From NCBI GenBank assembly GCA_050173015.1, contig JBFXLE010000004.1:64001-128000 (forward strand): a stretch of DNA of 64,000 nt, written 5' to 3'. The stretch comes from Calditrichaceae bacterium (GTDB lineage: Bacteria > Calditrichota > Calditrichia > Calditrichales > JBFXGD01). The notes under the pieces were generated by a model. That model ran no database searches. It saw only the letters and a list, made by a program, of their open reading frames with translations, and was not told the origin of the DNA. The number at the start of each line of letters is the position of its first letter. The first letter of the stretch is position 1. The translations under genes and the position numbers were made by a program. Positions 12,367 through 50,644 of this stretch are shown here, one piece after another.

Positions 12367-12418
12367 TAAAAATTGTATGGATCGGAATGGATCCTGACCA
12401 ACGGTTGTAAATGTTCTC

Positions 12419-14233
12419 GTGTTTAACAATGCCGAAAGAAATATTTTGAAGGAAAACAAAAGGGTGTTGACAAAGAATTTAATATATTTGTGGAGTTCTT
12501 TTTTTATTTTATCATGCGGATCGACGGTCTCAGATGAATTTTCTCCCCTGATACATGAATCAGGACGCTGGTTTGCGGAGGTCCGGACGGAAAAAGCAAA
12601 TTACAAGGATGGAGAAAAAGTCAGCTTTCTGCTGTCATTCCATGATAAACCGCAGCAGGAATCTGAAGTTTTTATTCGTTACCGATATCTGAATACCGTT
12701 TTGGATTCTCAAACAATAAAGACACCGGACAGCCTGGGTATTCACTGGCAATGGAATCCCCCGGCTCATGATTTCAGGGGGTATTTGACTGAAATATTCC
12801 TGAAGTACAATAACCGCGTATTAGATCAAATCAACATCGCGATTGATGTTTCGTCTGACTGGAGCCGTTTCCCTCGTTATGGTTTCCTTTCACGCTATCC
12901 CGAACTGAGTCAAAGCGCCATTGATTCTGTTATGCGCCGTTTGAATCGTCATCATATAAACGGGATTCAGTTTTATGACTGGCATTTTAAACATCATATG
13001 CCCCTGAGCACAAAGGACGGGCAAGTGACGGATACCTGGCCTGATATAGCCAAACGGCCCATACATCGCGAGACGATTGAAAAATATATAAAAGCTTGCG
13101 CTAAGTATGGTATGAAATCGATGGCCTATAATCTTTTGTATGGAAGCTGGGAGGACGGGCCGCGGGACGGAGCGCCCGCGAGTTGGCGGTTGTATCGCGA
13201 CCAAACTCAGAAGGAACCGGTTAAAATTGATTTTGATTCGAGCTGGTCAAGTGATATTTATTGGATGAATCCGGACAATAGGGACTGGCAGAATTATATT
13301 TTTCATCAGACTGAAAAAGTGTTTAACGCGTTACCATTTGATGGCTGGCATGTGGATCAGCTGGGTGACTGGGGGAAGATGTGGACGGCTGATGGCAGGG
13401 AAATCATGCCGGATACGACATTTGGAGATTTTTTGACATCCGCGCGTCAATATCTCAATCGACCTCTGGTTATGAATGCTGTATCGCAGTACGGACAGGA
13501 AGAGATTGCCGCAAGCCCGGTCGAATTTCTGTACTCCGAAGTCTGGGACCCTGACAGTACATACGCTGATTTGCTAAAGATTATCCGGCAAAACGATACC
13601 CTTGGAAATTCCCGGTTAAAGACTGTGTTCGCGGCATATGTGAATCAGGGCCTTGCCGAAAAGCCCGGCATGGCGAACACCGCTTCCGTTTTATTGGCTG
13701 ATGCCCTTATCTTTGCCGCGGGTGGAGATCACCTCGAATTGGGAGAGCATCTGCTGGTTCATCCATATTTCCCGAATAATAATCTTAAAATGGATGCCGC
13801 GTTACAAAAAAGTATGCTCGATTATTATGATTTTATGGTAGCGTATCAAAATATTTTAAGAGGGAATTTAAAAGACTCAGACATGAAAATTGAATCGGAC
13901 CAAAGGATTGAATTGAGTAAGGTACCGGAGCAGGGTAAAATATGGTATTCCGCTAAAACGGATAATCGGCGGAGCGTCGCGCATCTGGTAAATTTTTCAT
14001 CGGCCAAAACGATGAACTGGCGTGATGATAAGGGAATACAGACCGAACCGGATCTGATTAATCTATTGTCCATTTCATTTAATAGTACATCGCCCATACG
14101 TCAGATTTGGTATGCCTCTCCTGATTTTAATTCCGGTTCCCCTTTTACTATACCTTTCAAACAGGACGGAGATAAGATATTCCTGAAGCTGCCGCGATTC
14201 AGATACTGGTCTATGCTGGTGATGGAACAATAG
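12419..14233 (+). CDS. Glycoside hydrolase family 66 (dextranase/CITase), lipoprotein; true start probably 12464 or 12467
   Basis: DVSSDWSRFPRYGFL, HINGIQFYDW, FDGWHVDQLG, FLYSEVW, GGDHLELGE; lipobox-like FILSC. Confidence 0.92.
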   Translation: MFNNAERNILKENKRVLTKNLIYLWSSFFILSCGSTVSDEFSPLIHESGRWFAEVRTEKANYKDGEKVSFLLSFHDKPQQESEVFIRYRYLNTVLDSQTIKTPDSLGIHWQWNPPAHDFRGYLTEIFLKYNNRVLDQINIAIDVSSDWSRFPRYGFLSRYPELSQSAIDSVMRRLNRHHINGIQFYDWHFKHHMPLSTKDGQVTDTWPDIAKRPIHRETIEKYIKACAKYGMKSMAYNLLYGSWEDGPRDGAPASWRLYRDQTQKEPVKIDFDSSWSSDIYWMNPDNRDWQNYIFHQTEKVFNALPFDGWHVDQLGDWGKMWTADGREIMPDTTFGDFLTSARQYLNRPLVMNAVSQYGQEEIAASPVEFLYSEVWDPDSTYADLLKIIRQNDTLGNSRLKTVFAAYVNQGLAEKPGMANTASVLLADALIFAAGGDHLELGEHLLVHPYFPNNNLKMDAALQKSMLDYYDFMVAYQNILRGNLKDSDMKIESDQRIELSKVPEQGKIWYSAKTDNRRSVAHLVNFSSAKTMNWRDDKGIQTEPDLINLLSISFNSTSPIRQIWYASPDFNSGSPFTIPFKQDGDKIFLKLPRFRYWSMLVMEQ

Positions 14234-37377: not shown

Positions 37378-37425
37378 AATCTATATTGAAAAATGTAGAT
37401 ATTTCTACAATTTAAACTATAGGTT

Positions 37426-37887
37426 GTGAGGATGGAAGAGAAAAAAGGCCAAAAAAATGTACTGTATCCCATAGGGATGGTCGCCAAAATTTTTGATATT
37501 TCTGTGGCGACGCTCCGGCTGTATGAAGCGGAGGGATTAATCATTCCACGCAAAAGTAAGGGAGGACATCGTCTGTTTACAGAGGTCGATCTTGACCGTA
37601 TCCACTGTATCAGGGATATGATTGATGAAAAAGGCCTGAATCTGGCGGGAATCCGCATGATGTTGTCGGCAATTCCCTGTTGGGAGTTAAAACCATGCTC
37701 CCTTGAAGAGCGCCAGAGTTGCGACGCTTATTATGAATCCAATTCTCCCTGCTGGATGGTCGAAAATAAAGCTGAAATTTGTGCTAATGAGGACTGTAGT
37801 CAATGTCCCGTATATACGCAATCAAACAATTGTACCAATATAAAAATGATTTTAAAGAAATATTGGAGGGCGAAAGGTAATGGCTAA
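37426..37887 (+). CDS. MerR family regulator with Cys-rich (two 'CW' motif) C-terminal domain
   Basis: YPIGMVAKIFDISVATLRLYEAEGLI..KSKGGHRLF; C-terminal PCW..C..C..PCW..C..C..C..C (8 Cys). Confidence 0.88.
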   Translation: MRMEEKKGQKNVLYPIGMVAKIFDISVATLRLYEAEGLIIPRKSKGGHRLFTEVDLDRIHCIRDMIDEKGLNLAGIRMMLSAIPCWELKPCSLEERQSCDAYYESNSPCWMVENKAEICANEDCSQCPVYTQSNNCTNIKMILKKYWRAKGNG

Positions 37888-40090
37888 GAAATTCGACAGA
37901 CGCGAATTTATCAAAATTATGGGTGTCGGTACCGGAGGGGTAATGGTCGGTTCATCCATGTTGCAAGCGCTGGATTTTGGTTCGCTTAATGCCGTCACGC
38001 AAGGGGCAATGGACAGAACCCCCACCTACTGCGAGATATGTTTCTGGAAATGCGCCGGATGGGTTTATAAAAAAGATGATAAACCATGGAAGATCGAAGG
38101 TAATCCGGATGATCCAAACAGCAACGGGCGGTTTTGTCCCCGTGGGACAGGCGGTATTGGCGCGTATAACGATCCTGATCGTTTAAAAACACCGCTAATC
38201 AGGGTTGAAGAACGTGGAAAACAGGTTTTCCGTGAAGCCTCCTGGGAAGAAGCGTTCGACTATATCGCTGAAAAAATGATTGATATTAAAGAAAATCATG
38301 GTCCGGAATGCGTGGCTTTGTTTACGCATGGTTCCGGCGGTGATTATTTTAAAACACTATTGCGGGGATACGGTTCAAACAACATCGCAGCTCCGTCATA
38401 CGCTCAGTGCCGCGGGCCGCGTGAAGAAGCTTACATGCTTACTTTTGGCGAGGCGGTCGGTTCTCCGGAAAGAACCGATATCGCTAACAGTAAATGCATC
38501 GTTCTGATCGGATCACATCTTGGTGAAAATATGCATAACGGTCAGGTACAGGAGTTCTCTGAAGCGGTGGCAAAAGGCGCGTCTGTTATCACGGTTGACC
38601 CCAGATTTTCGACGGCCGCCAGCAAATCAAAATATTGGCTTCCGATAAAACCCGGAACGGATATGGCCTTACTTCTTGCCTGGATACATGTCATTATAAA
38701 TGAAGAATTGTATGATAAAAAGTATGTGGAAAAATATACCTATGGATTTGAACAATTAAAGGCAGCGGTTAAGGATAAAACCCCGGAGTGGGCATACACG
38801 AAAACAACAATTAAACCGAACGTCATCCGGGAAACGGCCAGGGAAATGGCTAAAAACGCGCCTGCTACATTAGTGCATCCGGGACGCCATGTTACATGGT
38901 ACGGCGATGATACTCAGCGTGTCAGGGCAGGAGCAATCCTCAATGCGCTGCTCGGCTCCTGGGGACGCAGGGGAGGGTTTTATGTTCCAGCGAAAGCTCA
39001 TCTCGCCAAAGCCAAATTACCTCCGTTTCCGGCAACCAACAAGAGCTGGAAAGACGCGTTCCCCGGGAAATTCCCGCTGGCGAGCCTGGCCCTATCTTCG
39101 GGAATCTGTGACGCCACGATCCCTTCTCCCCAGCATGATTGTTCATTCAAGGGGTGGATCGTATACGGAACAAATCTGCCGCTGACACTTCCGGAACCGA
39201 AAAAAACATTGGAAGCGATTCAAAATCTTGAACTACTTGTGGCGATCGATATCATGCCCGCGGAGATCACCGGTTGGGCCGATGTTGTGCTTCCTGAATG
39301 CACATATTTGGAACGTTACGATGACATAAGAATATCTCCGGGACGCGTTCCGACCATTGCTTTACGCGCGCCGGCATTCGAGCCTAAGTATAATACAAAA
39401 CCGGCATACTGGATGGCCAGGGAACTGTCAAAACGATTGGGTCTTCAGCAATATTTTCCGGCTGAAACGATGGAAAAACATATTGATCAGAGACTCAAGA
39501 CAATCGGCAGCAGTCTGAAAGAAATGAAAAAGATTGGCGTTAAGCGGTTTGAAAACGAATATGACCTCTATTTTCTTAATGGAGAAGATTATGAGTTCGG
39601 CACGCCAACCGGTAAGATCGAATTATACTCAACCACACTAAGCGACGCGGGATTTGATCCAATTCCACAATATACCGCCCATGAGGAACCGCCTGCAAAT
39701 TATTACCGCCTTCTTTACGGACGGGCACCAATGCATACTTTTGGAAGGACAGCAAATAATCCTAACCTGAATGATCTGATGGATGAGAATGAAGTCTGGA
39801 TAAATCCTAAAGTCGCCAAAGAATGGGGAATCAAGAACAGGCAATATATTAAATTAGAGAACCAGGATGGTGTCATATCTAATAAAATTCGCGTAAAAGT
39901 GACTGAACGAATTCGTCATGATTCAGTCTATATGGTTCATGGATTCGGTCACACACAGAAACAAATGACCCGTTCTTATCAGAAGGGTGCAAATGACACG
40001 GGACTGATTAGCAGGGTTAAAGTTGATCCGATTATGGGAGGCACGGGAATGCGTGTTAATTTTGTCACCTTTAAGAGGGAGGTAGCGTAA
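37880..40090 (+). CDS. psrA: Polysulfide/thiosulfate reductase molybdopterin subunit (PsrA/PhsA)
   Basis: Tat signal DRREFIK; FS0 motif CEICFWKC...FCPRG; Mo-ligand region APSYAQCRG; ADVVLPECTYLER. Confidence 0.88.
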   Translation: MAKKFDRREFIKIMGVGTGGVMVGSSMLQALDFGSLNAVTQGAMDRTPTYCEICFWKCAGWVYKKDDKPWKIEGNPDDPNSNGRFCPRGTGGIGAYNDPDRLKTPLIRVEERGKQVFREASWEEAFDYIAEKMIDIKENHGPECVALFTHGSGGDYFKTLLRGYGSNNIAAPSYAQCRGPREEAYMLTFGEAVGSPERTDIANSKCIVLIGSHLGENMHNGQVQEFSEAVAKGASVITVDPRFSTAASKSKYWLPIKPGTDMALLLAWIHVIINEELYDKKYVEKYTYGFEQLKAAVKDKTPEWAYTKTTIKPNVIRETAREMAKNAPATLVHPGRHVTWYGDDTQRVRAGAILNALLGSWGRRGGFYVPAKAHLAKAKLPPFPATNKSWKDAFPGKFPLASLALSSGICDATIPSPQHDCSFKGWIVYGTNLPLTLPEPKKTLEAIQNLELLVAIDIMPAEITGWADVVLPECTYLERYDDIRISPGRVPTIALRAPAFEPKYNTKPAYWMARELSKRLGLQQYFPAETMEKHIDQRLKTIGSSLKEMKKIGVKRFENEYDLYFLNGEDYEFGTPTGKIELYSTTLSDAGFDPIPQYTAHEEPPANYYRLLYGRAPMHTFGRTANNPNLNDLMDENEVWINPKVAKEWGIKNRQYIKLENQDGVISNKIRVKVTERIRHDSVYMVHGFGHTQKQMTRSYQKGANDTGLISRVKVDPIMGGTGMRVNFVTFKREVA

Positions 40091-40627
40091 ATGTCTCGAT
40101 ATGCAATGGCTATAGATACAAAACGATGTGTGGGTTGCGCCGATTGCGTTGTTGCCTGCCAGACGGAAAATAATGTTCCGATAGGATACTGTAAAGACTG
40201 GATTGTTGAGGAAATGACCGGTGTCTATCCGGAATTACAGCTTGAAATCCGCTCAGAACGATGCAATCACTGTGAAGACGCGCCCTGTGTGCGTTCCTGC
40301 CCGACCAGCGCCAGTCATTATGAAGAAGGTGGCATTGTTCTGGTGACTCATGAGGAATGTATCGGTTGTAAGGCGTGTATTGCTTCCTGCCCTTACGATG
40401 CAAGATTTGTTCATCCTGAAGGCTATGTGGATAAGTGTACATTTTGTATTCACAGAGTTAAAGACGGAAAAGATCCGGCATGTGTCAGCGTCTGTCCGAC
40501 ACACGCGATGATTTTTGGAGATCTGGATGATCCGAATAGTGAGATCTCAAAAACAATCCGTACGAGAAAAAATAAGACACTCATCCCGGAAGCAGGTACA
40601 AAACCTCATGTTTATTATCTGCTGTAA
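40091..40627 (+). CDS. psrB: 4Fe-4S dicluster electron-transfer subunit (PsrB/NrfC)
   Basis: CVGCADCVVAC, CNHCEDAPCVRSCP, CIGCKACIASCPY, KCTFC...PACVSVCP. Confidence 0.92.
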   Translation: MSRYAMAIDTKRCVGCADCVVACQTENNVPIGYCKDWIVEEMTGVYPELQLEIRSERCNHCEDAPCVRSCPTSASHYEEGGIVLVTHEECIGCKACIASCPYDARFVHPEGYVDKCTFCIHRVKDGKDPACVSVCPTHAMIFGDLDDPNSEISKTIRTRKNKTLIPEAGTKPHVYYLL

Positions 40628-40677
40628 AATATGAACCGGTTTTTAGGATTTGTAAATAAAATTTCTGGAGAATCAAA

Positions 40678-41631
40678 ATGAAAGAAATAACCATCACATC
40701 AGGGAGAATGAATCCGGGTATTGATCCGGTGCTTCATGCATGGGGTTGGGAAATCCCTGTTTACCTGTTTCTTGGAGGGCTTGTTGCCGGTATTCTGTTC
40801 TTCTCAACTCTATATTATATCCGCGGCCGACAGAATGACTACCCGACAGCGGTGAAAATCGCGCCGTTATTTGTCCCCGTGTTTTTATCAATCGGATTGC
40901 TGGCGTTGTTTCTCGATTTGTCGCATAAACTCTATTTTTGGCGACTGTACACGACAGTCCGGTGGGAGTCACCGATGTCCTGGGGCGCGTGGACGCTTCT
41001 TTTAATCTTTCCGCTCTCCATACTCTGGATCGCAACATGGATCGAGGATGTATTTCCTAAATGGAACTGGAAATATAAAATATTAAAAATCAGCGCGGAT
41101 TTACTAAAAAATTACCGCAAACTTCTGGCCTGGTCGGTTATGATCCTCGCGCTTATTCTCGGTATGTACACAGGTATTCTGCTTTCCGCCTTTAATGCGC
41201 GTCCATTCTGGAACACATCGATACTCGGGCCCTTATTTCTGGTTTCCGGTTTATCCACAGGAACGGCGTTCATCATTTTGCTGTCAAAATCTCATGAAGA
41301 GAAGAAAAGGTTCAGTCAGATTGATTTAACCCTGATTGGTGCGGAGCTGTTCTTAATCGTTCATATGTTTATGGGATTTCTGGCCAGCACCGAGGTCCAT
41401 ATTCAGGCCGCGGAACTTTTCCTCGGCGGACCGTACACCGCTGTATTCTGGACATTTATCGTCGGATTAGGGCTGGTGATTCCGCTTATTGTAGAGCTTC
41501 TGGAACTTCGCGGCGTGAAGATTCCTTTGCAAATTCCGGCATTGCTTGTGCTTATGGGCGGATTTATTCTGAGATTCATTGTTGTTGACGCCGGGCAGAC
41601 TTCGAGATGGCTGTATAAGTTTTTGGAGTAG
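40678..41631 (+). CDS. psrC: NrfD/PsrC membrane anchor subunit
   Basis: WGWEIPVYLFLGGL, LFLDL, SPMSWGAW, YTGILL..RPFWN. Confidence 0.9.
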   Translation: MKEITITSGRMNPGIDPVLHAWGWEIPVYLFLGGLVAGILFFSTLYYIRGRQNDYPTAVKIAPLFVPVFLSIGLLALFLDLSHKLYFWRLYTTVRWESPMSWGAWTLLLIFPLSILWIATWIEDVFPKWNWKYKILKISADLLKNYRKLLAWSVMILALILGMYTGILLSAFNARPFWNTSILGPLFLVSGLSTGTAFIILLSKSHEEKKRFSQIDLTLIGAELFLIVHMFMGFLASTEVHIQAAELFLGGPYTAVFWTFIVGLGLVIPLIVELLELRGVKIPLQIPALLVLMGGFILRFIVVDAGQTSRWLYKFLE

Positions 41632-41639
41632 GGAGGAAG

Positions 41640-42178
41640 AAGAAGTAGGAAGTAAGAAGTAGGAAGTAGGAAGGTTAAGAAAAAAGAAAAAAGAAAAAAG
41701 AAAAAAGATTAAGAACGGTCTGAACCTGGATTAAAATGATTAAATGATTTGGATGATTAAGAAATTGGAAATCAGAGTTGTCATTTAATCAGTCGAATCA
41801 GAGTTCAGACAAAGAAGTAAGAAGTAGGAAGTTGGAAGTGGGAAGTGGGAAGGTTAAGAAAAAAGAAAAAAGAAAAAAGATTAAGAACGGTCTGAACCGG
41901 GATTAAAATGATTAAATGATTTGGATGATTAAGAAATTGGAAATCAGAGTTGTCATTTAATCAGTCGAATCAGAGTTCAGACAAAGAAGTAAGAAGTAGG
42001 AAGTAAGAAGTAGGAAGTGGGAAGGTTAAGAAAAAAGAAAAATGAAAAAAGATTAAGAACGGTCTGAACCGGGATTAAAATGATTAAATGATTTGGATGA
42101 TTAAGAAATTGGAAATCAGAGTTGTCATTTAATCAGTCGAATCAGAGTTCAGACAAAGAAGTAAGAAGTAGGAAGGTT
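41640..42178. repeat. Composite tandem repeat: 3 x 172-bp units of heptamer arrays plus a 93-bp palindromic element
   Basis: GATTAAGAAC starts at 41707, 41879, 42051 (period 172); GTCTGAAC...GTTCAGAC elements at 41718-41810, 41890-41982, 42062-42154; (RGAAGTR)n and (AAGAAAA)n heptamers between them. Confidence 0.95.
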
Positions 42179-42279
42179 TAAAAAAAATATTGGGTGAGGA
42201 AGTCCGTGCCCAAAGAAAAAAGTGGATCTTAAAATAAATATAAAGAATAATTCCGGGTTTTAACGAGAGGAATCAAAAG

Positions 42280-42783
42280 ATGAAAGAACAAAAGTATTGG
42301 TCACCCTATTTATCAGGAATTGGCCTGGGGATTACACTCTTGCTGGCTTTTGTGATTATGGGGCGGGGACTTGGCGCTTCCGGTGCCATGATGAGGTTTG
42401 AAGTCTGGTTTCTAAACCTGTTCGCAGCCGATCATGTGGCGGCAAATCCTTATTTTAGCAAATATGCAAATAATCCTTTGTCAAACTGGCTGATTTTTGA
42501 AGTAATTGGTGTCATTATCGGCGGATTTTTATCAGGGGCTCTCGCGGGACGCCTGAAATTTAAAATCGGCAAAGGTCCGAATATTTCAAACAAAGGGCGT
42601 TTAGCTCTTGCTTTTGGTGGAGGCGCCTTAATGGGATTCGCCGCGCGTTTGGCGCGAGGATGTACCAGTGGTCTTGCGCTTACCGGTGGGGCGACGCTCG
42701 CTCTTGGAGGCTGGGTTTTTATGCTGATGATCTTCGCGGGTGGATACATGACCGCATATTTCGTCCGGAGACAGTGGTTATAA
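42280..42783 (+). CDS. YeeE/YedE family sulfur-compound transporter, half 1
   Basis: WSPYLSGIGLG, GLGASG, GGFLSG, GFAARLARGCTSG. Confidence 0.9.
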   Translation: MKEQKYWSPYLSGIGLGITLLLAFVIMGRGLGASGAMMRFEVWFLNLFAADHVAANPYFSKYANNPLSNWLIFEVIGVIIGGFLSGALAGRLKFKIGKGPNISNKGRLALAFGGGALMGFAARLARGCTSGLALTGGATLALGGWVFMLMIFAGGYMTAYFVRRQWL

Positions 42784-42844
42784 ATCAATGATCGTCAAAG
42801 GGAATATGATCTGATAAGAATTTTAGATCTTCTCGGAAATTTAA

Positions 42845-43450
42845 ATGATGGAGAAAACTATGGCACCCTTTTTTAAAATGGGATTTTTTGGAGAGCAGAC
42901 AAGTTTTATAATCGCTCTGATCCTTGGTATCAGTTTTGGTTTCTGGCTGGAAAGAGCCGGTTTTGGCGACAGCCGTAAATTAGCCCTTCAATTTTATTTT
43001 GAAGATATGACGGTCCTGAAAGTCATGTTTACGGCCATACTGGTGGCGATGGTAGGAATGATGTATATGACCTTGTTTGGCTATCTCGATATTGAAAAAG
43101 TATATATCAATCCGACATATATCTGGGCTCAGACAATCGGCGGACTCGTTTTGGGAGTCGGTTTCGCGATCGGCGGATATTGCCCGGGTACCTCAGTTGT
43201 GGGCGCGGCGACTGGAAGAATTGACGGTTTTGTGTATATTTTGGGAGCTCTGTTCGGGATGTTCGTGTTTGGGGAGATGTTCCCGTTCATCGAAGAGTTC
43301 TATTATGCCGGTTTCATGGGTAACGCGAAGCTGACCGACTTTTTTGGTCTTTCCACCGGTGTGGTGGGACTTCTCGTTATTCTGATGGCCGTGGGTATGT
43401 TTTACGGCGGTGAATGGTTGGAGAGAAAGTTCAGGAAGGAGACTGTATAA
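42845..43450 (+). CDS. YeeE/YedE family sulfur-compound transporter, half 2
   Basis: FGFWLERAGF, DMTVLKVMFTAI, GVGFAIGGYCPGTS. Confidence 0.9.
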   Translation: MMEKTMAPFFKMGFFGEQTSFIIALILGISFGFWLERAGFGDSRKLALQFYFEDMTVLKVMFTAILVAMVGMMYMTLFGYLDIEKVYINPTYIWAQTIGGLVLGVGFAIGGYCPGTSVVGAATGRIDGFVYILGALFGMFVFGEMFPFIEEFYYAGFMGNAKLTDFFGLSTGVVGLLVILMAVGMFYGGEWLERKFRKETV

Positions 43451-44076
43451 TGACATTTTCAAGCAAAACTCTCGGTTTTGGTTTGTTGGTTTTATTGGGT
43501 CTGATTCTGGCATTCTCACCCGTGGATAAGATGAGCCGGAAGCCGGTTACAGCCGAACAACTGATCAAAGAAATCACGACAAAAAAAGATTTTGTTCAGC
43601 CGGAAGACCTGGCGCACTGGATTATTGATAAAGATCCGGGTTTTCAGGTGATTGATGTCCGGTCAAAGGATGACTATGCAAAATATCATATTCCCGGAAG
43701 TGTCAGCATTCCGCTTGAGAAATTGGTCGATTCAGAGAGCAGGGACTATATCTATGCGAATAAAATGTTGATTCTTACTTCAAACGGAAACACAAATGCA
43801 TCCCAGGCCTGGATTTTTATGAAGCAATTGGGATATAAGGAAGTTTATATTCTTTCGGGCGGAATGAATTACTGGGTAGATGTTTTTAGCAATCCTAATC
43901 CTCCGGAAGGTAGCTACACGGACGATGAACTCTTCACTTACCAGTTCCGAAAAGCGGCTGGGCCGGTGATGATGGGAACGGCGGTCGCTACTTCATCCGA
44001 AGTAACAATTGAAGCGCCGGCTCCTGTAAAAAGAGCAATCAGGATGCCAAAGAAAAAGCGTGATGAGGGATGTTAA
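43450..44076 (+). CDS. Membrane-anchored rhodanese-like protein with C-terminal EGC; start placed at 43450
   Basis: N-terminal TM/signal; VIDVRS..Y...HIPGS, LSGGMNYW; ATG overlaps the yeeE stop (TAATG). Confidence 0.85.
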   Translation: MTFSSKTLGFGLLVLLGLILAFSPVDKMSRKPVTAEQLIKEITTKKDFVQPEDLAHWIIDKDPGFQVIDVRSKDDYAKYHIPGSVSIPLEKLVDSESRDYIYANKMLILTSNGNTNASQAWIFMKQLGYKEVYILSGGMNYWVDVFSNPNPPEGSYTDDELFTYQFRKAAGPVMMGTAVATSSEVTIEAPAPVKRAIRMPKKKRDEGC

Positions 44077-44085
44077 GATTACCTG

Positions 44086-44120
44086 AAGCAGGGCAGATAA
44101 TTTCTGCTCTGCTTTTTTTT
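44086..44120. terminator. Terminator between convergent operons
   Basis: AAGCAGGGCAGA-TAATT-TCTGCTCTGCTT followed by a T-run. Confidence 0.8.
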
Positions 44121-45744
44121 ATTTGTTGAATAGTTCTTCTATGCCGTCGTTTTTAAATGCCCTTGTCCGCCACTTTTTGTAATCCGCCGATTTTTCCAAC
44201 AATCTTCGTTGTTCCTGACTGTTTAATAAACGGCTTCCCGGTATAACAGGTTCGGTCGGCAGAGTTATTGAATTTGAAACGGAGTTCGAAAAAGCATTGC
44301 GAATTCCCAATCCGGCGGCTTTGGTATTACCGTGACAGCTTTCACAGACGCGCCCACTCTTCCCGGTTGTGTGGGGTGTGTACGCATCCCATGACCAACC
44401 GGGGCGCCCGTCAGATCTTTTCGGGATGACCGAATCAAGCCATAAATTTTCACTGGAATCCACATACGTTATAAAATACTGATGTAGCGGTCGGATAATT
44501 GAGTATTTTCCATTGGAATTTACTCCCAGCACGGGATCTTCCCATCGTCTGAACGACCAGCCTTTATACCAGATTCCGGTTGATTCCACACCTGTTAAAC
44601 GATTGGGCGAATGAGCGGTTGGCCGTACTGTCGGATCAATCAGAAACATATCGGTCAATAAATTGATAACGGATTTATCTCCCTGCCAAATCAAATTTTC
44701 CCATATTTCATAATGTTTGGTTTCATCCAGAAAAAGATGAAGACCGTAATCCTGGTATGACCATTGCGCGTGACACGAACCGCAGGTTAAATCCGCGTGA
44801 AAATCCATATGTGATATGATGTCTTTATTAAATTTTATTACATCTTTTTTATTTGGAGCTTGTTTAAATCCGCCGTGGCAATTTTCGCACCTGATATCCG
44901 AAGGCTGCTCTCCAAATTTTCTATTTCGGAAATCACCCATGACACTCTGTGAAGTGTGACAGTCAAGACATGTCATACCCGCATTCTGATGCACATCGGT
45001 AGCGAGACGGTGCTGATAGGCGCCGAAGAAGGGTTGGCTTCCGTAAGGCGTCGCGTATTCCTGATGATAGTCATGTTCAAAATAACCATAATAGTCACCA
45101 CCGATATGATTATTTGAATGACAAGTCAGACAGGTTTTATCCACAACTTTTTTCTGCATTTTATGACCATGCAGGGGCTCACCATTTTTCTGATCGAAGG
45201 GAATATGACAAGATGCGCATCCGCCGGCTCTTATTTTACCAGGCTGCTCATCCTTCCCTGAAGCGTTAAAGTGACAGGAAAGACATTTTTTTGCCAGCAG
45301 ATTGTCCACGAGCTCCGGAGGGGTCGTACCTGTGGCGCGTCCTGTTCTGCCCAGCAGTTTCCATTGATCGGGATCAGGATTCGTAACAAGCGTTTTGTCT
45401 TTTCCCCAAAGATATCTGGTCTGTGAGATCATTCCCCCGGCAGAGTAGTGAAGGCTGTTTTTAAATTGAGTGATTTCTTTTTGATGACAGCTGAGACATT
45501 TTTCACGCCACCATTTTTCTAATGAAGGATTTTGTATCACACGCGAATGACCTGCCTGATCGGGTTGAAAATCAGCGTTTGGTGAGGAATGACAGTCCGC
45601 GCAGGTAATATTGCAGCTGGATTCAATACCCTTATGACAATCAACGCAGTTCTCGCCCGCGTATCCGGCGGACACGACCATGAGCAATAAAACCTGAAGG
45701 CTTATTTGTCGGATTAACCTCACAGAATAACAACTCTTAATCAT
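44119..45744 (-). CDS. Multiheme cytochrome c (10 CxxCH)
   Basis: CVDCH, CADCH, CLSCH x2, CASCH, CLTCH, CLDCH, CENCH, CGSCH, CESCH; signal peptide; ATG at 45744 overlaps the upstream stop. Confidence 0.9.
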   Translation of the reverse strand: MIKSCYSVRLIRQISLQVLLLMVVSAGYAGENCVDCHKGIESSCNITCADCHSSPNADFQPDQAGHSRVIQNPSLEKWWREKCLSCHQKEITQFKNSLHYSAGGMISQTRYLWGKDKTLVTNPDPDQWKLLGRTGRATGTTPPELVDNLLAKKCLSCHFNASGKDEQPGKIRAGGCASCHIPFDQKNGEPLHGHKMQKKVVDKTCLTCHSNNHIGGDYYGYFEHDYHQEYATPYGSQPFFGAYQHRLATDVHQNAGMTCLDCHTSQSVMGDFRNRKFGEQPSDIRCENCHGGFKQAPNKKDVIKFNKDIISHMDFHADLTCGSCHAQWSYQDYGLHLFLDETKHYEIWENLIWQGDKSVINLLTDMFLIDPTVRPTAHSPNRLTGVESTGIWYKGWSFRRWEDPVLGVNSNGKYSIIRPLHQYFITYVDSSENLWLDSVIPKRSDGRPGWSWDAYTPHTTGKSGRVCESCHGNTKAAGLGIRNAFSNSVSNSITLPTEPVIPGSRLLNSQEQRRLLEKSADYKKWRTRAFKNDGIEELFNK

Positions 45745-47522
45745 CAATTTTTTCTGCATGGCAGGTGGCTCTCATTCCGGTACCTTTCGATACTTTGTTC
45801 AAAATTTCTATAAATGGCGTCATTATAGGTATCATGACAGGTGATACAAAGACTAACCCTGTAAATGTTTTTGATCTCTTTCATGTCAAACGGGCGGGCG
45901 GTGAGTCTTGACATGCGTTGGGTCAGCCTGCCCTGACCATCGGTCATCATCTCAAGGCTAGTTTTCCCAAGGCCGGCCGTTTGCGTATCGTACAGTTGCT
46001 GTGTTTCGAAACCATTTTCTCGCGGTTTCAGAAATCCTTCTCCCATTCCTAGACGCTTGATATTACTGTGGCAATCTATACATTCCGGCACTGATTTTCT
46101 TGTAGAATGCGGATCAAACGGGGCCATGGTCAGCCAGGTTTTTTGCTGTCTGATCTGCAAAGAGTCATTCAGTTCGGTTAAATACACCTGGCATCCGGGA
46201 GCGAAGGGCATAACCCGATCCAGATTGTCCACACCGAGTGTGGGTTTTTCATAGCGCAGGTATGAGCGTCCCTCACGCCAGTGGCCGAATGTTTCCTCAT
46301 TGCTGACTTTGTCAAGCTGTTTTTTGGTGGGATCGTAAATATCATGACAACCGTAACACTGCGGCGTATAAGCGGAGTGACAGGACTGACATCCCATCCT
46401 ATCATGTCCCTGAAAATTACAGGCTTCATTATTTTTGTTTTGCGGAATTTCCAGCTCTTTACCGTCAAGTTTTCTGGTCAGCACGGGCTTTCCCGACCGC
46501 ATTTCTACATTGGCGTAAAATGAACCGCGGGTTGTTCTTGCCAACAGGGAATCATCCGGCATCATAAGATTTTGGTTGACAGATATAATTTTCCATACAA
46601 TATTATCCGCGGGAGGACGTTCAAATTCCGCGTCATGACAGTCTTCACATTTGATATGCACCTGCTGTTCAAGGTGCTCGTATCTTTTGCCGTCTCCCAT
46701 GATATCTTCCGCGACATGGCAGTCGATACAGGTCATTCCCGCGTCAAAATGGACATCCGCTGTTATATGATAGTAAAATCTGCCGCCTGAGAGTTCCATT
46801 TGGGAAGTATTTCCGCCCTCATAGGGTGTGCCGTATCCTTCTGATTCAAATTTTCCCTGATAGGTCAGCGCTGTTCTGTTGGAGCGGTTATGGCATTTTT
46901 CACAGGTCGGGATATCGATTTCCACACTCAGCGTTGGATGTATTTTCAAATTCTCGTTTTTCACCAGGTGACAATCGTTGCATCCGCCACCGCGTTCTCC
47001 GATTTCTCCGGGGAAATCATTTTCGCGTTTATTGATATGACAACTCGCGCAAAGCTTTCGGAGATGCGAGGTCGCCAGCGAAGTGTCCGGAATGTTCTGA
47101 TCTATATGAAGCGTGGAATCATCGGGAGTTGATTTTTCATACCATTGATAGAGAGTTGACGCAACCAGTCCTGAATTTGAAGTCATTATGGAATTTTTAA
47201 CGGAATGCGCCAGATCGGAATGGCATTCGCTTTTACCGCAGGTTTGGTCAACCCAGTGTAGATCGGATGGATTCCTGACCATGCCGTAGTGCGCGTTTCT
47301 TTCATCGGCTGCATCCGGATTTCCGAGATGACAGGTGTAACATCCAAAGATTTTATTTGGGTGTGAAGAACTCATATCCTTCTCATCAGCATGACAGGAA
47401 ATACAGCGGTCAGGCCGATTAAGGGCGTTTATGTTATCATTCGTGCCGTTATTCTGTATGGTTAAAATGATAACCAGAAGAAGAATCAAAATTGAAAGAA
47501 TTAAATATGTCCGGGGTTTCAT
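45744..47522 (-). CDS. Membrane-anchored multiheme cytochrome c (11 CxxCH + 1 CX4CH)
   Basis: CISCH, CYTCH, CGKSECH, CASCH, CNDCH, CEKCH, CIDCH, CEDCH, CQSCH, CYGCH, CIDCH, CITCH; N-terminal TM; ATGA overlap with cytochrome b. Confidence 0.9.
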   Translation of the reverse strand: MKPRTYLILSILILLLVIILTIQNNGTNDNINALNRPDRCISCHADEKDMSSSHPNKIFGCYTCHLGNPDAADERNAHYGMVRNPSDLHWVDQTCGKSECHSDLAHSVKNSIMTSNSGLVASTLYQWYEKSTPDDSTLHIDQNIPDTSLATSHLRKLCASCHINKRENDFPGEIGERGGGCNDCHLVKNENLKIHPTLSVEIDIPTCEKCHNRSNRTALTYQGKFESEGYGTPYEGGNTSQMELSGGRFYYHITADVHFDAGMTCIDCHVAEDIMGDGKRYEHLEQQVHIKCEDCHDAEFERPPADNIVWKIISVNQNLMMPDDSLLARTTRGSFYANVEMRSGKPVLTRKLDGKELEIPQNKNNEACNFQGHDRMGCQSCHSAYTPQCYGCHDIYDPTKKQLDKVSNEETFGHWREGRSYLRYEKPTLGVDNLDRVMPFAPGCQVYLTELNDSLQIRQQKTWLTMAPFDPHSTRKSVPECIDCHSNIKRLGMGEGFLKPRENGFETQQLYDTQTAGLGKTSLEMMTDGQGRLTQRMSRLTARPFDMKEIKNIYRVSLCITCHDTYNDAIYRNFEQSIERYRNESHLPCRKN

Positions 47523-48430
47523 CTGTTTAAAAATTGCCATCCATCCCCTCGAAAATATGTACCAATGATGCTTTCAATCATATAAATAATAATCATAAGG
47601 AGTATAAAATACAGCACGGACTTTTCAAATTTCTTTACTACCGGTAACAGAAAGAAGGCGATGAGTATCAGCGAGGGGAAAACAACACCAGCGATCGAAA
47701 CCGGCAGCCAGGCAAGAAGTTCCTGCAATCCGATGAAGTACCAGGGTCCTTTTACAACTTCAATAACCGCGTCCGGTCTGAATCCCAGTTTTGCGGGAAA
47801 CAAAATTGCAAAAAGTGAGATCAATATGATTGTATATGCAAACGCGTACCGCTCCGATTTTAATCTGTGAATATGAATATAGGTAAGAATCACGGATAAG
47901 ATTGAAAAAGTGGCCGCGTGATGCGTATAGATTACCGCCAGCGGTGTTGTTGAACGTTCCGACTGCAGGAGAAAGTTTGACAGAGTATTCCCAAGCGCGG
48001 GAAGCGTTTGCAGGATTCCGTCAAAGATATGCACCGCGGAAAAACTTTCCTTGCTGCCGATACTTAAAAATCCGCTGAAGACGGTAAGAATGGAGATTAC
48101 GAACAGAATGATAAGCAATCCCCATGATTTCATGGTATAGCTTTGATAAGTTTTTTTTAAAAGATATTCAATGATATGGATGACTGTTGAAATTAGAAAT
48201 ATATCACCCGCGTAAGAATGGAAACCGTGTAAAAAAGCACCCATATAGCCGGCGCTGATGAATTGACTGACACTCCGGAATGGATCGTCGCCGGAAATAT
48301 AGAAGGGTATGAGCATTAATCCTGAAATCAGGGCTAATACAAGGCTGCTGAGTGAAATTTCCCCCCAGCCCGGCATCCACAATGTTTTTTCAAAAAAGAC
48401 TGATCGGTTCAAGATTTTATCCATTTTCAA
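47519..48430 (-). CDS. Cytochrome b/b6-like protein (Rieske/cyt b complex membrane subunit)
   Basis: ISGLML..FY, heme His in GFHSY / VIHI / THH / YIHI; SGFL; PEWY-equivalent GPWYFIGLQELL. Confidence 0.82.
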   Translation of the reverse strand: MKMDKILNRSVFFEKTLWMPGWGEISLSSLVLALISGLMLIPFYISGDDPFRSVSQFISAGYMGAFLHGFHSYAGDIFLISTVIHIIEYLLKKTYQSYTMKSWGLLIILFVISILTVFSGFLSIGSKESFSAVHIFDGILQTLPALGNTLSNFLLQSERSTTPLAVIYTHHAATFSILSVILTYIHIHRLKSERYAFAYTIILISLFAILFPAKLGFRPDAVIEVVKGPWYFIGLQELLAWLPVSIAGVVFPSLILIAFFLLPVVKKFEKSVLYFILLMIIIYMIESIIGTYFRGDGWQFLNR

Positions 48431-48436
48431 AAAAGA

Positions 48437-48832
48437 TCAAATAATTATCTCAATATCATTCGTTTCGTTGAGTTTATAATCCAGATCGGTCAGATTTTTT
48501 TTTGCCGGTCCGGATAAATAATTCCCTTCATTGTCAAATTTGCTGCCGTGACAGGGGCAGATGAACATTTTGCTGTTTTCGTTAAAATTTACGGTGCATC
48601 CCAAATGAGTACATTTTTTTGAAATGATGCGCAATTTTTGATGGTCAGTTCTGACAAAGAAAAATTCGGTTTCCTTCAGGTCTTTCAATTTTAATTTTAG
48701 AACATGTTTCTTTTGGGAAATACGATTTAAAAAACCGGAAAATGGAAAATACAAAAGACCTGCAGCCAGAAATAAAATTCTCCGGCCTAATGTATGTAAA
48801 AATGTGCGGCGTTTGTAAGTGTTTTCCGACAT
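48437..48832 (-). CDS. Rieske [2Fe-2S] protein
   Basis: KCTHLGC and CPCHGSKF boxes, SGPA; Tat-like KRRTFL. Confidence 0.95.
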   Translation of the reverse strand: MSENTYKRRTFLHTLGRRILFLAAGLLYFPFSGFLNRISQKKHVLKLKLKDLKETEFFFVRTDHQKLRIISKKCTHLGCTVNFNENSKMFICPCHGSKFDNEGNYLSGPAKKNLTDLDYKLNETNDIEIII

Positions 48833-48872
48833 ATCAATTATTTTTTTGTGAGACTATTTTATATGATAAGGG

Positions 48873-50012
48873 TTAGATCCCCGATGAGTCATTCTTCTCC
48901 CGGACAGTTGTTTCGACTGTTAAAACCTGGATGAAGAGCTGTGTCATAAAACTGTCCAATCTCCTGATTCCCTTATTATCTCCGGATACGATCCAGCTTT
49001 GCCGGATAATTTGTTTAAATAAGGGGAACAATCCAATTATAGATTCAATTTCCGGCGAATAGTGTATTTTTTTTCTGCTCAAATATGACCTGAGTTTGTT
49101 GATCACTATCGGTCCTAATATAAAGTACCAGATAGTCATTATAAGAACGGATCTCGCTACCATTAATAAAGCTGCTGTTCCTTGGTTTTTCTCAAATACG
49201 GGAAAAATATAGGACAAAATCAGGATCGATGATATAATCACGAGTAGCATTATATTGGAAAATTTATGCCAGGGACGTTTTCTTTTCTTTTTTTTCGGAG
49301 GATTATCCGCTTTATCAGAATCCACAGTCAGATTCAACGATACCGGATTGTTTTTTAATTCGTTTTTTATTTTAACGCTAAGGATAGGCGCCCAAACACC
49401 TGCCGATACACCGGCCGCAACGTGAATGCCTACATATAGAATGATAAATAAGGCGCTGATGCTGAGTGGCAGGGAATCCGTTCCTGAAAGAAAAAGTTGA
49501 CCAAGAATATATTCTGTAAACAAGTCAATCGAATTCCACAGATTATTACCGAAAACAACGGTCAAAATGATGATTTTCTGAATTCCCGATTGAAACAAGG
49601 CCAGAGCTCCGAGGATGGGAGCGGCTATACCGGGGTATTTTATCCATCGGAATATAAATTCACCGAACAAACCCTGCAAACCCACGGCGATATACGCGGT
49701 AATCGGTGTGTGTGGACTGACAAGACCTTTCACAATTAAAACCAATAGAGTGGCGCGGAGAATGGTGTTTTTTTTATCCGAAAAACAAGCGATAAGCGTC
49801 ATAAATATCACAGCGCTGCTGCCGATTATCAATCCGGTGAACGGGATTTTAAATGCATGCAGAATGCCTCCGAGTCCTGCTTCGCTTAAGGCCCAAAGCG
49901 CTGTAATTCGGTCGATAGCTCTCGTACGGGAAAAGTAATACCCGGCCGGAGAATCATTGGTAATCATTGTATTTTTGATGGGATTATTCATTTTTCTTGC
50001 TTCAGGTATCAC
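48873..50012 (-). CDS. Hypothetical polytopic membrane protein
   Basis: Several TM segments; ITALWALSEAGLGGILHAFKIPFTG; start overlaps the mobA stop. Confidence 0.7.
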   Translation of the reverse strand: MIPEARKMNNPIKNTMITNDSPAGYYFSRTRAIDRITALWALSEAGLGGILHAFKIPFTGLIIGSSAVIFMTLIACFSDKKNTILRATLLVLIVKGLVSPHTPITAYIAVGLQGLFGEFIFRWIKYPGIAAPILGALALFQSGIQKIIILTVVFGNNLWNSIDLFTEYILGQLFLSGTDSLPLSISALFIILYVGIHVAAGVSAGVWAPILSVKIKNELKNNPVSLNLTVDSDKADNPPKKKKRKRPWHKFSNIMLLVIISSILILSYIFPVFEKNQGTAALLMVARSVLIMTIWYFILGPIVINKLRSYLSRKKIHYSPEIESIIGLFPLFKQIIRQSWIVSGDNKGIRRLDSFMTQLFIQVLTVETTVREKNDSSGI

Positions 50013-50644
50013 TCTGTCTGATCAGGAAACTCATCTGTCTGCATCAATCTTGCCAGGTCTTCCCGGGTATTGACATTATAAAAGTATTCGGGTTTATACC
50101 CCGGCATATTATTGGGGATATCGACCTGAACGGCGTTTAAGCGTGAAAGAAGTTTGTGCAGACTGTAATTTCCCTCACGGATTGACTGTTCGACGATCCT
50201 TAATGCGTTGGCCGGCCAGATAGAGACCAAGGGCTCGATACCCTTATCGGACTTTGCGACAACTGCTTGATCGGCCGATCGGGAGTTCATCATATAATGA
50301 TACACTTTTGCCGAAAGGCGGGGCATATCACATGGCAGAACGGCAATCCATTGGTCCGGGAAACAGGCCAGCGCCGTATAGATACCGCCAATAGGCCCCC
50401 GGTCGGTAACTTTGTCCCGCACAGACCTGATGTGATCAAAATATTTGATCTCTTCCGGGCCTGAAACGATAACGATATTGTCCGCGATACCTTCAGCCAG
50501 CCCGGCGGCCCAGTCTATAAGTCGCTTATTTTTATAGACAGCTGTGACCTTCGAAGTACCAAATCTGGCGCTTTTTCCACCGGCAATGATCGCCGCGGAA
50601 AGTGCATTTATATTTTCCAAACATTTCTCATAGTAAATGATCAT
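50009..50644 (-). CDS. mobA: Molybdenum cofactor guanylyltransferase
   Basis: IIAGGKSARFG..K, GPIGGIYTAL, LPCDMP, EPL, FYNVNTREDL. Confidence 0.93.
   Translation of the reverse strand: MIIYYEKCLENINALSAAIIAGGKSARFGTSKVTAVYKNKRLIDWAAGLAEGIADNIVIVSGPEEIKYFDHIRSVRDKVTDRGPIGGIYTALACFPDQWIAVLPCDMPRLSAKVYHYMMNSRSADQAVVAKSDKGIEPLVSIWPANALRIVEQSIREGNYSLHKLLSRLNAVQVDIPNNMPGYKPEYFYNVNTREDLARLMQTDEFPDQTE

Follow-up and report, generated by a model that had tools for sequence, protein, structure and literature searches.

Two operons that converge in a 64,000-nucleotide stretch of the genome of Calditrichaceae bacterium (assembly GCA_050173015.1, contig JBFXLE010000004.1, positions 64,001 to 128,000; this whole stretch is the window, and its own coordinates are used below) raise the question of whether a polysulfide reductase (Psr) and a Rieske/cytochrome b/multiheme cytochrome complex form one respiratory system or are only neighbors. 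The first operon, module A, lies on the + strand with the gene order merR-psrABC-yeeE-yeeE-rhodanese. The second, module B, lies on the - strand; it is headed by mobA and continues with genes for a membrane protein, a Rieske protein, cytochrome b, a 12-heme cytochrome c (c12) and a 10-heme cytochrome c (c10). The open reading frame (ORF) list, together with Pfam and NCBIfam scans of the window proteins, recovered all 13 genes named in a preliminary description of this DNA, at the positions and in the convergent layout it had given. We read the locus as a co-inherited island for the respiration of sulfur compounds, in which two quinone-linked membrane modules would work on one periplasmic sulfur pool, and we lean slightly toward this reading. 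Functional coupling of modules A and B is likely. Genomes and loci are cited by working labels (G and L), the 4.3-Mb genome that holds the window being G000.

Linkage and co-occurrence of the two modules

We compared 86 Calditrichota genomes, counting as a c12 orthologue a protein of at least 53% identity. An orthologue was present in 21 of the 86 genomes, G000 included, and 20 of these 21 also encoded a PsrA orthologue. The preliminary description had proposed a neighborhood search for linkage of the two operons in relatives, and such linkage was found in 9 of 13 assessable genomes: modules A and B lay within 20 kb of each other in G000, G003, G006, G009, G013, G014, G026, G035 and G036, were apart in four genomes, and could not be judged in seven whose contigs were short. 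In all Calditrichota loci fetched, whichever module was present was conserved as a unit.

The nine linked genomes show five arrangements. The modules abut and converge in G000, G026, G013 and G009, and in G006 they converge with a DDE transposase inserted between them. In G014 one strand carries all eleven genes in tandem, the rhodanese and Rieske genes being 173 bp apart. In G003 the genes after module B, on the same strand, form a set of Phs-type paralogues: psrA' (44% identity) and psrB', then genes for an anchor of the cytochrome b561 type, for a YeeE pair and for a rhodanese ending in Cys. In G035 and G036 the modules lie 4-12 kb apart with unrelated genes between them, and module B looks disrupted. 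In both of these genomes an AAA_14/DUF4143 gene on the opposite strand splits c12 from c10 (L007:6032-7273 in G035, and the same place in G036), and no Rieske or cytochrome b gene was found upstream. A fusion-type module B, in which cytochrome b and c12 form a single protein, occurs in G032; downstream of it, in the same orientation, come a TorD-like gene, psrA', psrB', a fusion of the reductase anchor to a YeeE half, and a separate YeeE half. Contig ends of the near-identical congeners G033 and G034 fit this layout, and we counted the three as one lineage.

Both fusions were recovered with Pfam, each in three of three proteins tested. Cytochrome_B and multiheme c domains are joined in one protein of 902-938 aa, which speaks for a direct partnership of c12 and cytochrome b. 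Similarly, Ni_hydr_CYTB, a b561-type reductase anchor, is joined to a Sulf_transp half in one protein of 491-541 aa, an argument for a YeeE channel that is built physically into the reductase complex. In family f3, PsrA was encoded by 16 of 17 genomes with c12 and by three of nine without it (Fisher p = 0.002), and across the phylum minus G000 the corresponding counts were 19 of 20 and 22 of 65; related genomes are not independent, so p-values for this co-occurrence overstate the case. The 9/13 linkage, the co-occurrence of Psr with c12 and the two fusion types are new in this analysis, as are the His-to-Cys substitutions described below.

To look outside the phylum, we ran a pattern scan with one genome per species, which returned 271 c12-family loci; the best 80 of these 271 were examined, and their flank lengths vary. 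Sulfur or molybdenum genes were present in the flank of 11 of the 25 c12 loci with adjacent Rieske/cytochrome b genes. Nine loci outside Calditrichota have Rieske/cytochrome b genes beside c12, and rhodanese, YeeE or Psr genes lie within about 6 kb in five of them. Upstream of the L079 module, at a distance of 3 kb and in the same orientation, is a complete psrABC-YeeE-YeeE-terminal-Cys-rhodanese set. Beside the L037 module are a gene for a two-domain rhodanese, oriented convergently, and a 'selenium metabolism-associated LysR' gene; L081 has a split YeeE pair, L087 a YedE-type channel, and L091 a YedE-type channel with a three-domain rhodanese. In a c12 tree these five loci cover all three non-Calditrichota clades that carry Rieske/cytochrome b. 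The 51 c12 loci without adjacent Rieske/cytochrome b genes come mostly from Desulfobacteraceae and have a short MerR gene ahead of c12-c10. This 107-aa Desulfobacterota MerR (for example L040:9610-9933; loci L036-L083) was tried as a link to the window and rejected, being 20% identical to the window MerR (E = 0.098). In L065, from a Thermodesulfobacteriota metagenome-assembled genome (MAG), genes for a distant molybdopterin oxidoreductase (28% identity to PsrA) and for a ferredoxin subunit come after c12-c10 in the same orientation (10897-13734).

An alternative explanation is that the modules are neighbors by inherited synteny only, module B being a general quinol:multiheme oxidoreductase, serving for example extracellular or high-potential acceptors, with no tie to Psr. 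We consider this unlikely. The adjacency survives or re-forms through five arrangements, among layouts that include two same-strand orders, two reductase paralogues and two types of module B; PsrA is concentrated in genomes with c12; and sulfur genes recur beside Rieske/cytochrome b-c12 modules in three other clades. Several observations nevertheless weigh against coupling, and some of them favor synteny. The modules are apart in four of the 13 assessable genomes, by 233 kb in G004 and with no Psr genes in the flanks seen in G020, G024 and G012; nor were Psr genes present 8.4 and 5.8 kb downstream of c10 in the named MAG loci L028 and L034, respectively. Most linkage falls within one order and could be inherited synteny. 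The window operons are convergent, hence not one transcript, and they have no operator in common: a palindrome just 5' of merR has no counterpart 5' of module B in a scan of the 64-kb window. Among c12 loci without Rieske/cytochrome b, just 2/51 had sulfur or molybdenum genes in the flank, the other 49 being without sulfur genes nearby. An independent-pairs test of Rieske/cytochrome b against sulfur genes yielded three pairs only (p >= 0.25) and had no power. PsrABC has its own quinol site, independent of a bc complex, and a Rieske center is usually too high in potential to drive polysulfide reduction. Finally, Caldithrix abyssi, which has a related Psr, is described as not respiring elemental sulfur or thiosulfate on H2 or acetate (PMC5317091).

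Module A and its terminal-cysteine rhodanese-fold protein

The preliminary description assigned the catalytic subunit to the Psr type, and comparison with solved proteins bore this out. PsrA (37880..40090, +) matched PsrA of Thermus thermophilus (2VPW-2VPZ) with 718 bits, residues 6-732 aligning with 2-742 of 2VPW chain A, while the runner-up among solved proteins, acetylene hydratase, scored 171 bits. In this alignment the Cys of YAQCRGPRE falls on that of VSLCTAPRE in 2VPW, which we take to be the molybdenum ligand. The N-terminal 4Fe-4S (FS0) motif C-x2-C-x3-C...C is present, with a Pfam Molybdop_Fe4S4 match in addition to Molybdopterin and Molydop_binding domains, and the motif RREFIK marks the protein as a candidate for twin-arginine (TAT) export. 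The score against the NCBIfam PhsA equivalog was 495 bits, under the cut-off of 694. By full-length likeness to the Thermus enzyme, then, this bis-molybdopterin guanine dinucleotide (bis-MGD) protein is a predicted Psr-type catalytic subunit of the Psr/Phs clade. PsrB (40091..40627, +), a four-cluster ferredoxin subunit with 17 Cys, matched Fer4_11 with 88 bits, and PsrC (40678..41631, +), an NrfD-type quinol-binding membrane anchor with eight hydrophobic segments, matched PF03916 with 159 bits. Module A has these three subunits in common with Thermus PsrABC, and beyond them it has a MerR regulator, a split YeeE pair and a rhodanese fold with a C-terminal Cys.

The regulator gene (37426..37887, +; Pfam MerR_1, 64 bits) encodes a MerR-family protein with a Cys-rich C-terminal tail. 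An orthologue of 42-70% identity lies 5' of psrA in all eight Calditrichota Psr loci fetched. Just upstream of merR, at 37394..37409, is the perfect palindrome TGTAGA-N4-TCTACA, a candidate MerR operator with one exact copy in the whole 64-kb window. A MerR operator common to both modules was rejected as a candidate, since the window held three matches at up to two mismatches and this count was equalled in 16 of 100 shuffles.

Genes within the operons abut or overlap (for example, merR and psrA share 8 nt, cytochrome b and c12 22 nt, c12 and c10 16 nt, and mobA and the membrane protein gene 4 nt), with the sole exception of a 648-bp gap between psrC and yeeE. This gap holds a tandem repeat of 3.1 copies of a 172-bp unit with 95% matches (41640..42175); in the fetched relatives the gap, read from coordinates, is only about 17-132 bp. 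Each repeat unit has a purine-rich tract phased at 7 nt.

The two YeeE genes encode complementary halves of a Sulf_transp protein. The first (42280..42783, +; PF04143, 86 bits, profile positions 174-309) is of the C-terminal-half type and carries a GCTSG motif whose Cys, C128, is invariant in 10 of 10 aligned sequences. The second (42845..43450, +; PF04143, 55 bits, profile positions 13-152) is of the N-terminal-half type, with a CPGT motif whose Cys, C113, is invariant in nine of nine. Both halves scored below the TsuA and YedE NCBIfam equivalog cut-offs, and the YedE-type matches carry selenium-linked names. The Sulf_transp domain and the conserved Cys motifs identify the pair as a probable split channel with a putative transport function.

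The last gene of module A encodes a membrane-anchored rhodanese-fold protein (43450..44076, +; the ORF opens at 43414, and the likely start is 43450) with one hydrophobic segment, at the N-terminus. The rhodanese domain named in the preliminary description was recovered (PF00581, 62 bits; cut-off 22), but the active-site loop held no Cys in any of eight aligned orthologues and paralogues. Because the catalytic Cys is missing, the protein is predicted not to be an ordinary sulfurtransferase. Its sole invariant Cys in the eight aligned sequences is the last residue, within an invariant E-G-C that follows a Lys/Arg-rich tail. Of 88 relatives from a collection of 5.8 billion proteins, 86 have xGC as their last residues, and the number with exactly one Cys is also 86. 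We read the protein as a candidate carrier arm that may hold persulfide or polysulfide on its terminal thiol. SoxY offers an analogy only. Both proteins have one conserved Cys, at the C-terminus or close to it, in a flexible tail, and the gene of each is located beside those of c-type cytochromes; the SoxY arm is Gly-Gly-Cys-Gly-Gly. The folds are unrelated, however, and there is no sequence similarity. Selenocysteine read-through at the C-terminus of the rhodanese-fold protein was rejected, as the stop codon is TAA. Prediction of a complex between this protein and the split YeeE pair scored 0.19 against a mark of 0.32, which is evidence neither way.

Parts of module A have been described in other bacteria. 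In sulfur disproportionators such as Desulfurivibrio dismutans, Psr operons include genes for secreted proteins with rhodanese domains, and YeeE/YedE has been proposed as an inner-membrane sulfur transferase (PMC12142623). The rhodanese of these operons is a three-domain sulfurtransferase, in contrast to the single domain, missing catalytic Cys and terminal Cys found here, and the available text of that study mentions no Rieske/cytochrome b-multiheme module adjacent to the Psr operons. Psr and two sulfurtransferases were also annotated in C. abyssi (Kublanov 2017, PMC5317091). The same source places the only Rieske/cytochrome b pair of C. abyssi at the Nap locus. A protein listed at NCBI under the name of C. 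abyssi (P0013) is 59% identical to c12.

The stop codons of the two modules are 42 bp apart. A hairpin with a 13-bp stem (44085..44115, +) fills this gap between the convergent genes. The shared terminator that the preliminary description reported is borne out only in part: a T-run follows the hairpin on the + strand alone.

Module B, a relative of the Geobacter Ext complex

The preliminary description likened module B to the Geobacter ext cluster, and comparison with NCBIfam models agreed. The c12 protein (45744..47540, -), which has an N-terminal membrane helix, matched ExtM (NF040943) with 311 bits over 17-586 of 599 model positions, not reaching the cut-off of 800. Desulfobacterota c12 homologs likewise scored just ~300-326 bits, so the ExtM model is narrow. 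The c10 protein (44119..45759, -) matched ExtM and ExtN less strongly than this, with 104 bits for ExtN (NF040967; cut-off 200). The heme counts of 12 and 10 were exact, c12 having 11 CXXCH motifs and one CX4CH and c10 having 10 CXXCH. The two cytochromes are paralogous (27% identity, E = 1e-39). In sequence searches of PDB, c12 had no match and c10 only one at chance level (E = 0.008). An AlphaFold2 model of c12, built on a 15-row alignment, had a mean pLDDT of 52.9, too poor for a fold search or a ligand check.

Cytochrome b (47519..48430, -; PF00033) is a single fused 303-aa protein of the b6 type with a subunit-IV-like C-terminal part. Its N-terminal part scored 68 bits of the 290 required by ExtP, and its C-terminal part 25 of the 150 required by ExtQ. 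Likeness to ExtP was rejected as a family marker; it is generic for b6-type cytochromes b, since those of two other Rieske/cytochrome b modules in G000 scored higher (237 and 214 bits). The Rieske 2Fe-2S subunit (48437..48832, -; PF00355) carries the motifs CTHLGC and CPCH, and RRTFL near its N-terminus. As in bc1 and b6f complexes, module B has the Rieske motifs, the four heme-ligand His of cytochrome b (H-x13-H at residue 71 and, as in b6, H-x14-H at 171) and a PEWY-like Qo motif (GPWY at 228-231). It differs from them in that cytochrome c1 or f is replaced by two multiheme cytochromes with 22 hemes; in a sister clade the 12-heme protein is one with cytochrome b. The NCBIfam model for the Rieske protein ExtO (NF040968) matched the cytochromes, with scores nearly equal to those of ExtN, and missed the module B Rieske protein; this model may rest on the wrong protein.

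In Geobacter, ExtM has 12 hemes and ExtN 10, ExtO is a Rieske protein, ExtP a cytochrome b and ExtQ a membrane protein, and the rhodanese-like ExtH is encoded upstream (Jahan 2018, PMC5877670). The ExtMNOPQ(S) proteins, encoded by GSU2930-2935 within extHIJKLMNOPQS, correspond to Cbc6/CbcMNOPQR, a predicted quinol:cytochrome c oxidoreductase (PMC13591261; bioRxiv 2021.04.15.440034). Module B is composed of the same parts (12-heme and 10-heme cytochromes, Rieske protein, cytochrome b and a small membrane part), and in both loci a rhodanese-family gene is nearby and the complex is associated with a reductase of polysulfide type. By this likeness it is a relative of ExtMNOPQ and belongs to a named class. 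The preliminary description had ranked the locus as its best candidate for an undescribed system; both the Cbc6/ExtMNOPQS class and Psr operons with rhodanese and YeeE genes (PMC12142623) are already on record, and that claim is given up.

Several features set module B apart from the Geobacter complex. Its gene order is Rieske-cytochrome b-c12-c10 and not M-N-O-P-Q, the ExtP- and ExtQ-like parts are fused, the neighboring reductase is the molybdoenzyme Psr and not a heme selenoenzyme, and His-to-Cys substitutions occur in c12 and c10. Other Ext components were not recovered: ExtJ had no match in G000, the window rhodanese had no match to the ExtH model, and the ExtKL/MccSep equivalog (NF040886) was over its cut-off in 0 of 86 Calditrichota genomes, the best score being 70 bits. 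NF040941 was dropped as an ExtKL model because it represents an unrelated family. ExtKL is MccSep, a polysulfide reductase with five hemes and selenocysteine that G. sulfurreducens requires for S0 respiration (Mihara, August 2026, PMC13510729), and gsu2935 (ExtM) is located downstream of mccsep according to the preprint of that study; the available main text of the published version leaves ExtM, Rieske and 'cytochrome bc' unmentioned. Two non-homologous polysulfide-type reductases thus stand beside the same class of complex in two phyla, MccSep in Geobacter and Psr in Calditrichota. Literature searches found no publication on the pairing of Psr with Ext proteins.

Complexes of the Cbc6/ExtMNOPQ type are conserved throughout Geobacter and frequent among Desulfobacterota of sediments; a review of September 2026 still gives their physiological role as unknown (PMC13591261). 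Cbc6 has been grouped with the quinol oxidases that serve extracellular electron transfer in Geobacter (PMC13591261; bioRxiv 2021.04.15.440034), which speaks for inherited synteny without a tie to Psr, and so does the abundance of multiheme proteins in G000, where 28 ORFs have at least three CXXCH motifs.

We next considered residues conserved in the cytochromes. Across 75 c12 sequences no variation occurs in the 12 heme motifs, at one free Cys (C450), at two Met or at six free His. At position 374 most of the sequences (53 of 75) have His; the 22 with Cys are all 17 Calditrichota sequences and five loci (L092 and L094-L097) labeled Desulfurivibrionaceae, Desulfobulbaceae, Deltaproteobacteria or Proteobacteria. 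In c10, position 49, which aligns with the invariant H60 of c12, is His in 39 of 54 sequences and Cys in the other 15, which comprise every Calditrichota sequence. If the substituted His are distal heme ligands, Calditrichota c12 and c10 would have His/Cys-ligated hemes. Such ligation marks sulfur-converting cytochromes, among them TsdA, SoxAX and MccSep (PMC13510729), and the substitutions would fit a sulfur role.

A terminator-like hairpin with a T-run (50771-50742, -) closes the tetratricopeptide repeat (TPR) gene upstream, so we place the start of the operon at mobA (50009..50644, -), which encodes a molybdenum cofactor guanylyltransferase (NTP_transf_3, 100 bits; MobA NF001457, 118 bits against a cut-off of 164). 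MobA makes the cofactor that PsrA needs, and the preliminary description had taken its position in the cytochrome operon as a functional link between the modules. This link was rejected. A hidden Markov model search of G000 for mobA returned the window gene as the single match in a genome with two Nar-type molybdenum enzymes, and in G003, G026 and G004 mobA adjoins merR-psr, outside the cytochrome operon. The gene marks the edge of the island and is no evidence for coupling. Placement of mobA and the following membrane protein gene ahead of Rieske is a layout common to the window and a same-genus MAG only. This polytopic protein of 379 aa (48873..50012, -) has no Pfam or NCBIfam match and belongs to no named family; among the loci compared, only the window and that MAG (L018) have it. 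In the Atlas it falls into unnamed membrane-protein clusters that are commonest in Bacteroidota, and its distribution marks it as a probable genus-specific addition to the operon.

Module B is one of three Rieske/cytochrome b modules in G000. A second (L098, G000:C8:148942-154060) follows the gene for a GltD-like NAD(P)-binding Fe-S flavoprotein, and downstream of it is the gene for a 5-heme cytochrome whose end resembles SoxX, with genes for a NosZ of the Sec-dependent, clade II type and for NosD after it. The third (L099, G000:C3:248650-256746) has a b6-type cytochrome and a 9-heme cytochrome and is divergent from genes for a HAO-like octaheme protein and an NrfH-like 5-heme protein. Since the L098 and L099 modules each adjoin a periplasmic terminal reductase (NosZ and the HAO-like octaheme protein), dedicated feeder modules are a habit of this organism, which speaks for coupling in the window too. 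Elsewhere G000 encodes an Otr-type octaheme cytochrome in addition to the two Nar-type enzymes. A further cluster (L100, G000:C15:33678-43723), headed by a two-domain rhodanese gene, encodes cytochromes with 3, 19, 11, 12 and 9 CXXCH motifs, two of them fused to formate-dehydrogenase-gamma-type cytochrome b domains.

Electron flow, substrate and meaning

If the island respires sulfur compounds, quinol would be oxidized at PsrC and electrons would pass through PsrB to the periplasmic Mo-bisMGD site of PsrA, which would reduce a substrate of the polysulfide or thiosulfate class. The split YeeE channel would pass sulfur anions for module A, and the rhodanese-fold protein would hold persulfide or polysulfide on its terminal Cys as a carrier arm. 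Module B would act as a Rieske/cytochrome b6-type quinol oxidase that delivers electrons to a periplasmic chain of 22 hemes, anchored in the membrane by c12, and this chain may act on the same periplasmic sulfur pool. The Geobacter complex of the same class adjoins the polysulfide reductase MccSep. The hemes might reduce carrier-bound or free sulfur, serve a partner substrate of higher potential such as tetrathionate or selenite, or drain a quinone pool filled by reversed Psr. The analysis establishes what the genes are, that each module is conserved, and that linkage, co-occurrence and fusions recur; the substrate, the direction of electron flow and contact of the cytochromes with Psr or the carrier are features that we infer. 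The electron exchange between cytochromes and a sulfur relay, and the selenium or tellurium role, raised in the preliminary description are conjectural.

The direction of flow could also be the reverse. In an oxidative or disproportionating chain, Psr would convert sulfide to polysulfide and reduce menaquinone, and module B would drain the quinol to an acceptor of higher potential. Such a chain would explain why two quinone-linked complexes are kept together, one filling the pool and one emptying it, and it would suit the high potential of Rieske centers. Cys374 of c12 in L092 and L094-L097, in addition to Calditrichota, is compatible with it, and in cable bacteria Psr has been drawn in the electron transport scheme and ExtM/ExtN homologs have been reported (PMC11976967). 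The nearest relative with a solved structure, PsrABC of Thermus, was deposited as a reductase, which speaks against this direction, and we judge it to be distinctly unlikely.

The substrate could alternatively be selenite or tellurite, which the island would respire or detoxify in place of sulfur compounds. NCBIfam names its Ext families 'selenite/tellurite reduction operon', and besides the selenium-linked names among the YedE-type matches there is the selenium-associated LysR gene beside the L037 module. A part in the reduction of selenite and tellurite has been ascribed to ExtI (PMC5877670), and MccSep sustains dye oxidation that depends on selenite (PMC13510729). Srr, which is the one respiratory selenite reductase known, is encoded together with proteins that have rhodanese domains (PMC12481199). 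The selenium names, however, derive largely from co-occurrence with ExtKL, which no Calditrichota genome of the 86 encodes above the cut-off. The TAA stop of the rhodanese gene and the closeness of PsrA to a sulfur enzyme likewise argue against a selenium system, and a selenite-class activity would be compatible with sulfur respiration in any case. We therefore regard a selenite/tellurite island as very improbable.

Respiration of sulfur compounds by two coupled modules is the reading that we retain. A bolder version would give the Cbc6/ExtMNOPQ class one job in several phyla, as the membrane module dedicated to periplasmic sulfur respiration. The Calditrichota complex would then join Psr/Phs, the YeeE channel and a SoxY-like terminal-Cys carrier in a single machine, the molybdenum site and the His/Cys hemes of c12 and c10 processing sulfur chains bound covalently to the carrier. 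This version we hold to be unlikely; if true, it would provide a function for the Geobacter complex and a new kind of sulfur-carrier protein.

The pairing with Psr gives complexes of the Cbc6/Ext type a testable role, that of serving periplasmic sulfur respiration. The terminal Gly-Cys of the rhodanese-fold protein, the fusion of the reductase anchor to YeeE and the His-to-Cys substitutions in the cytochromes are specific handles for biochemistry. Since Calditrichota are common in marine sediments, such a role would have a bearing on cryptic sulfur cycling there.

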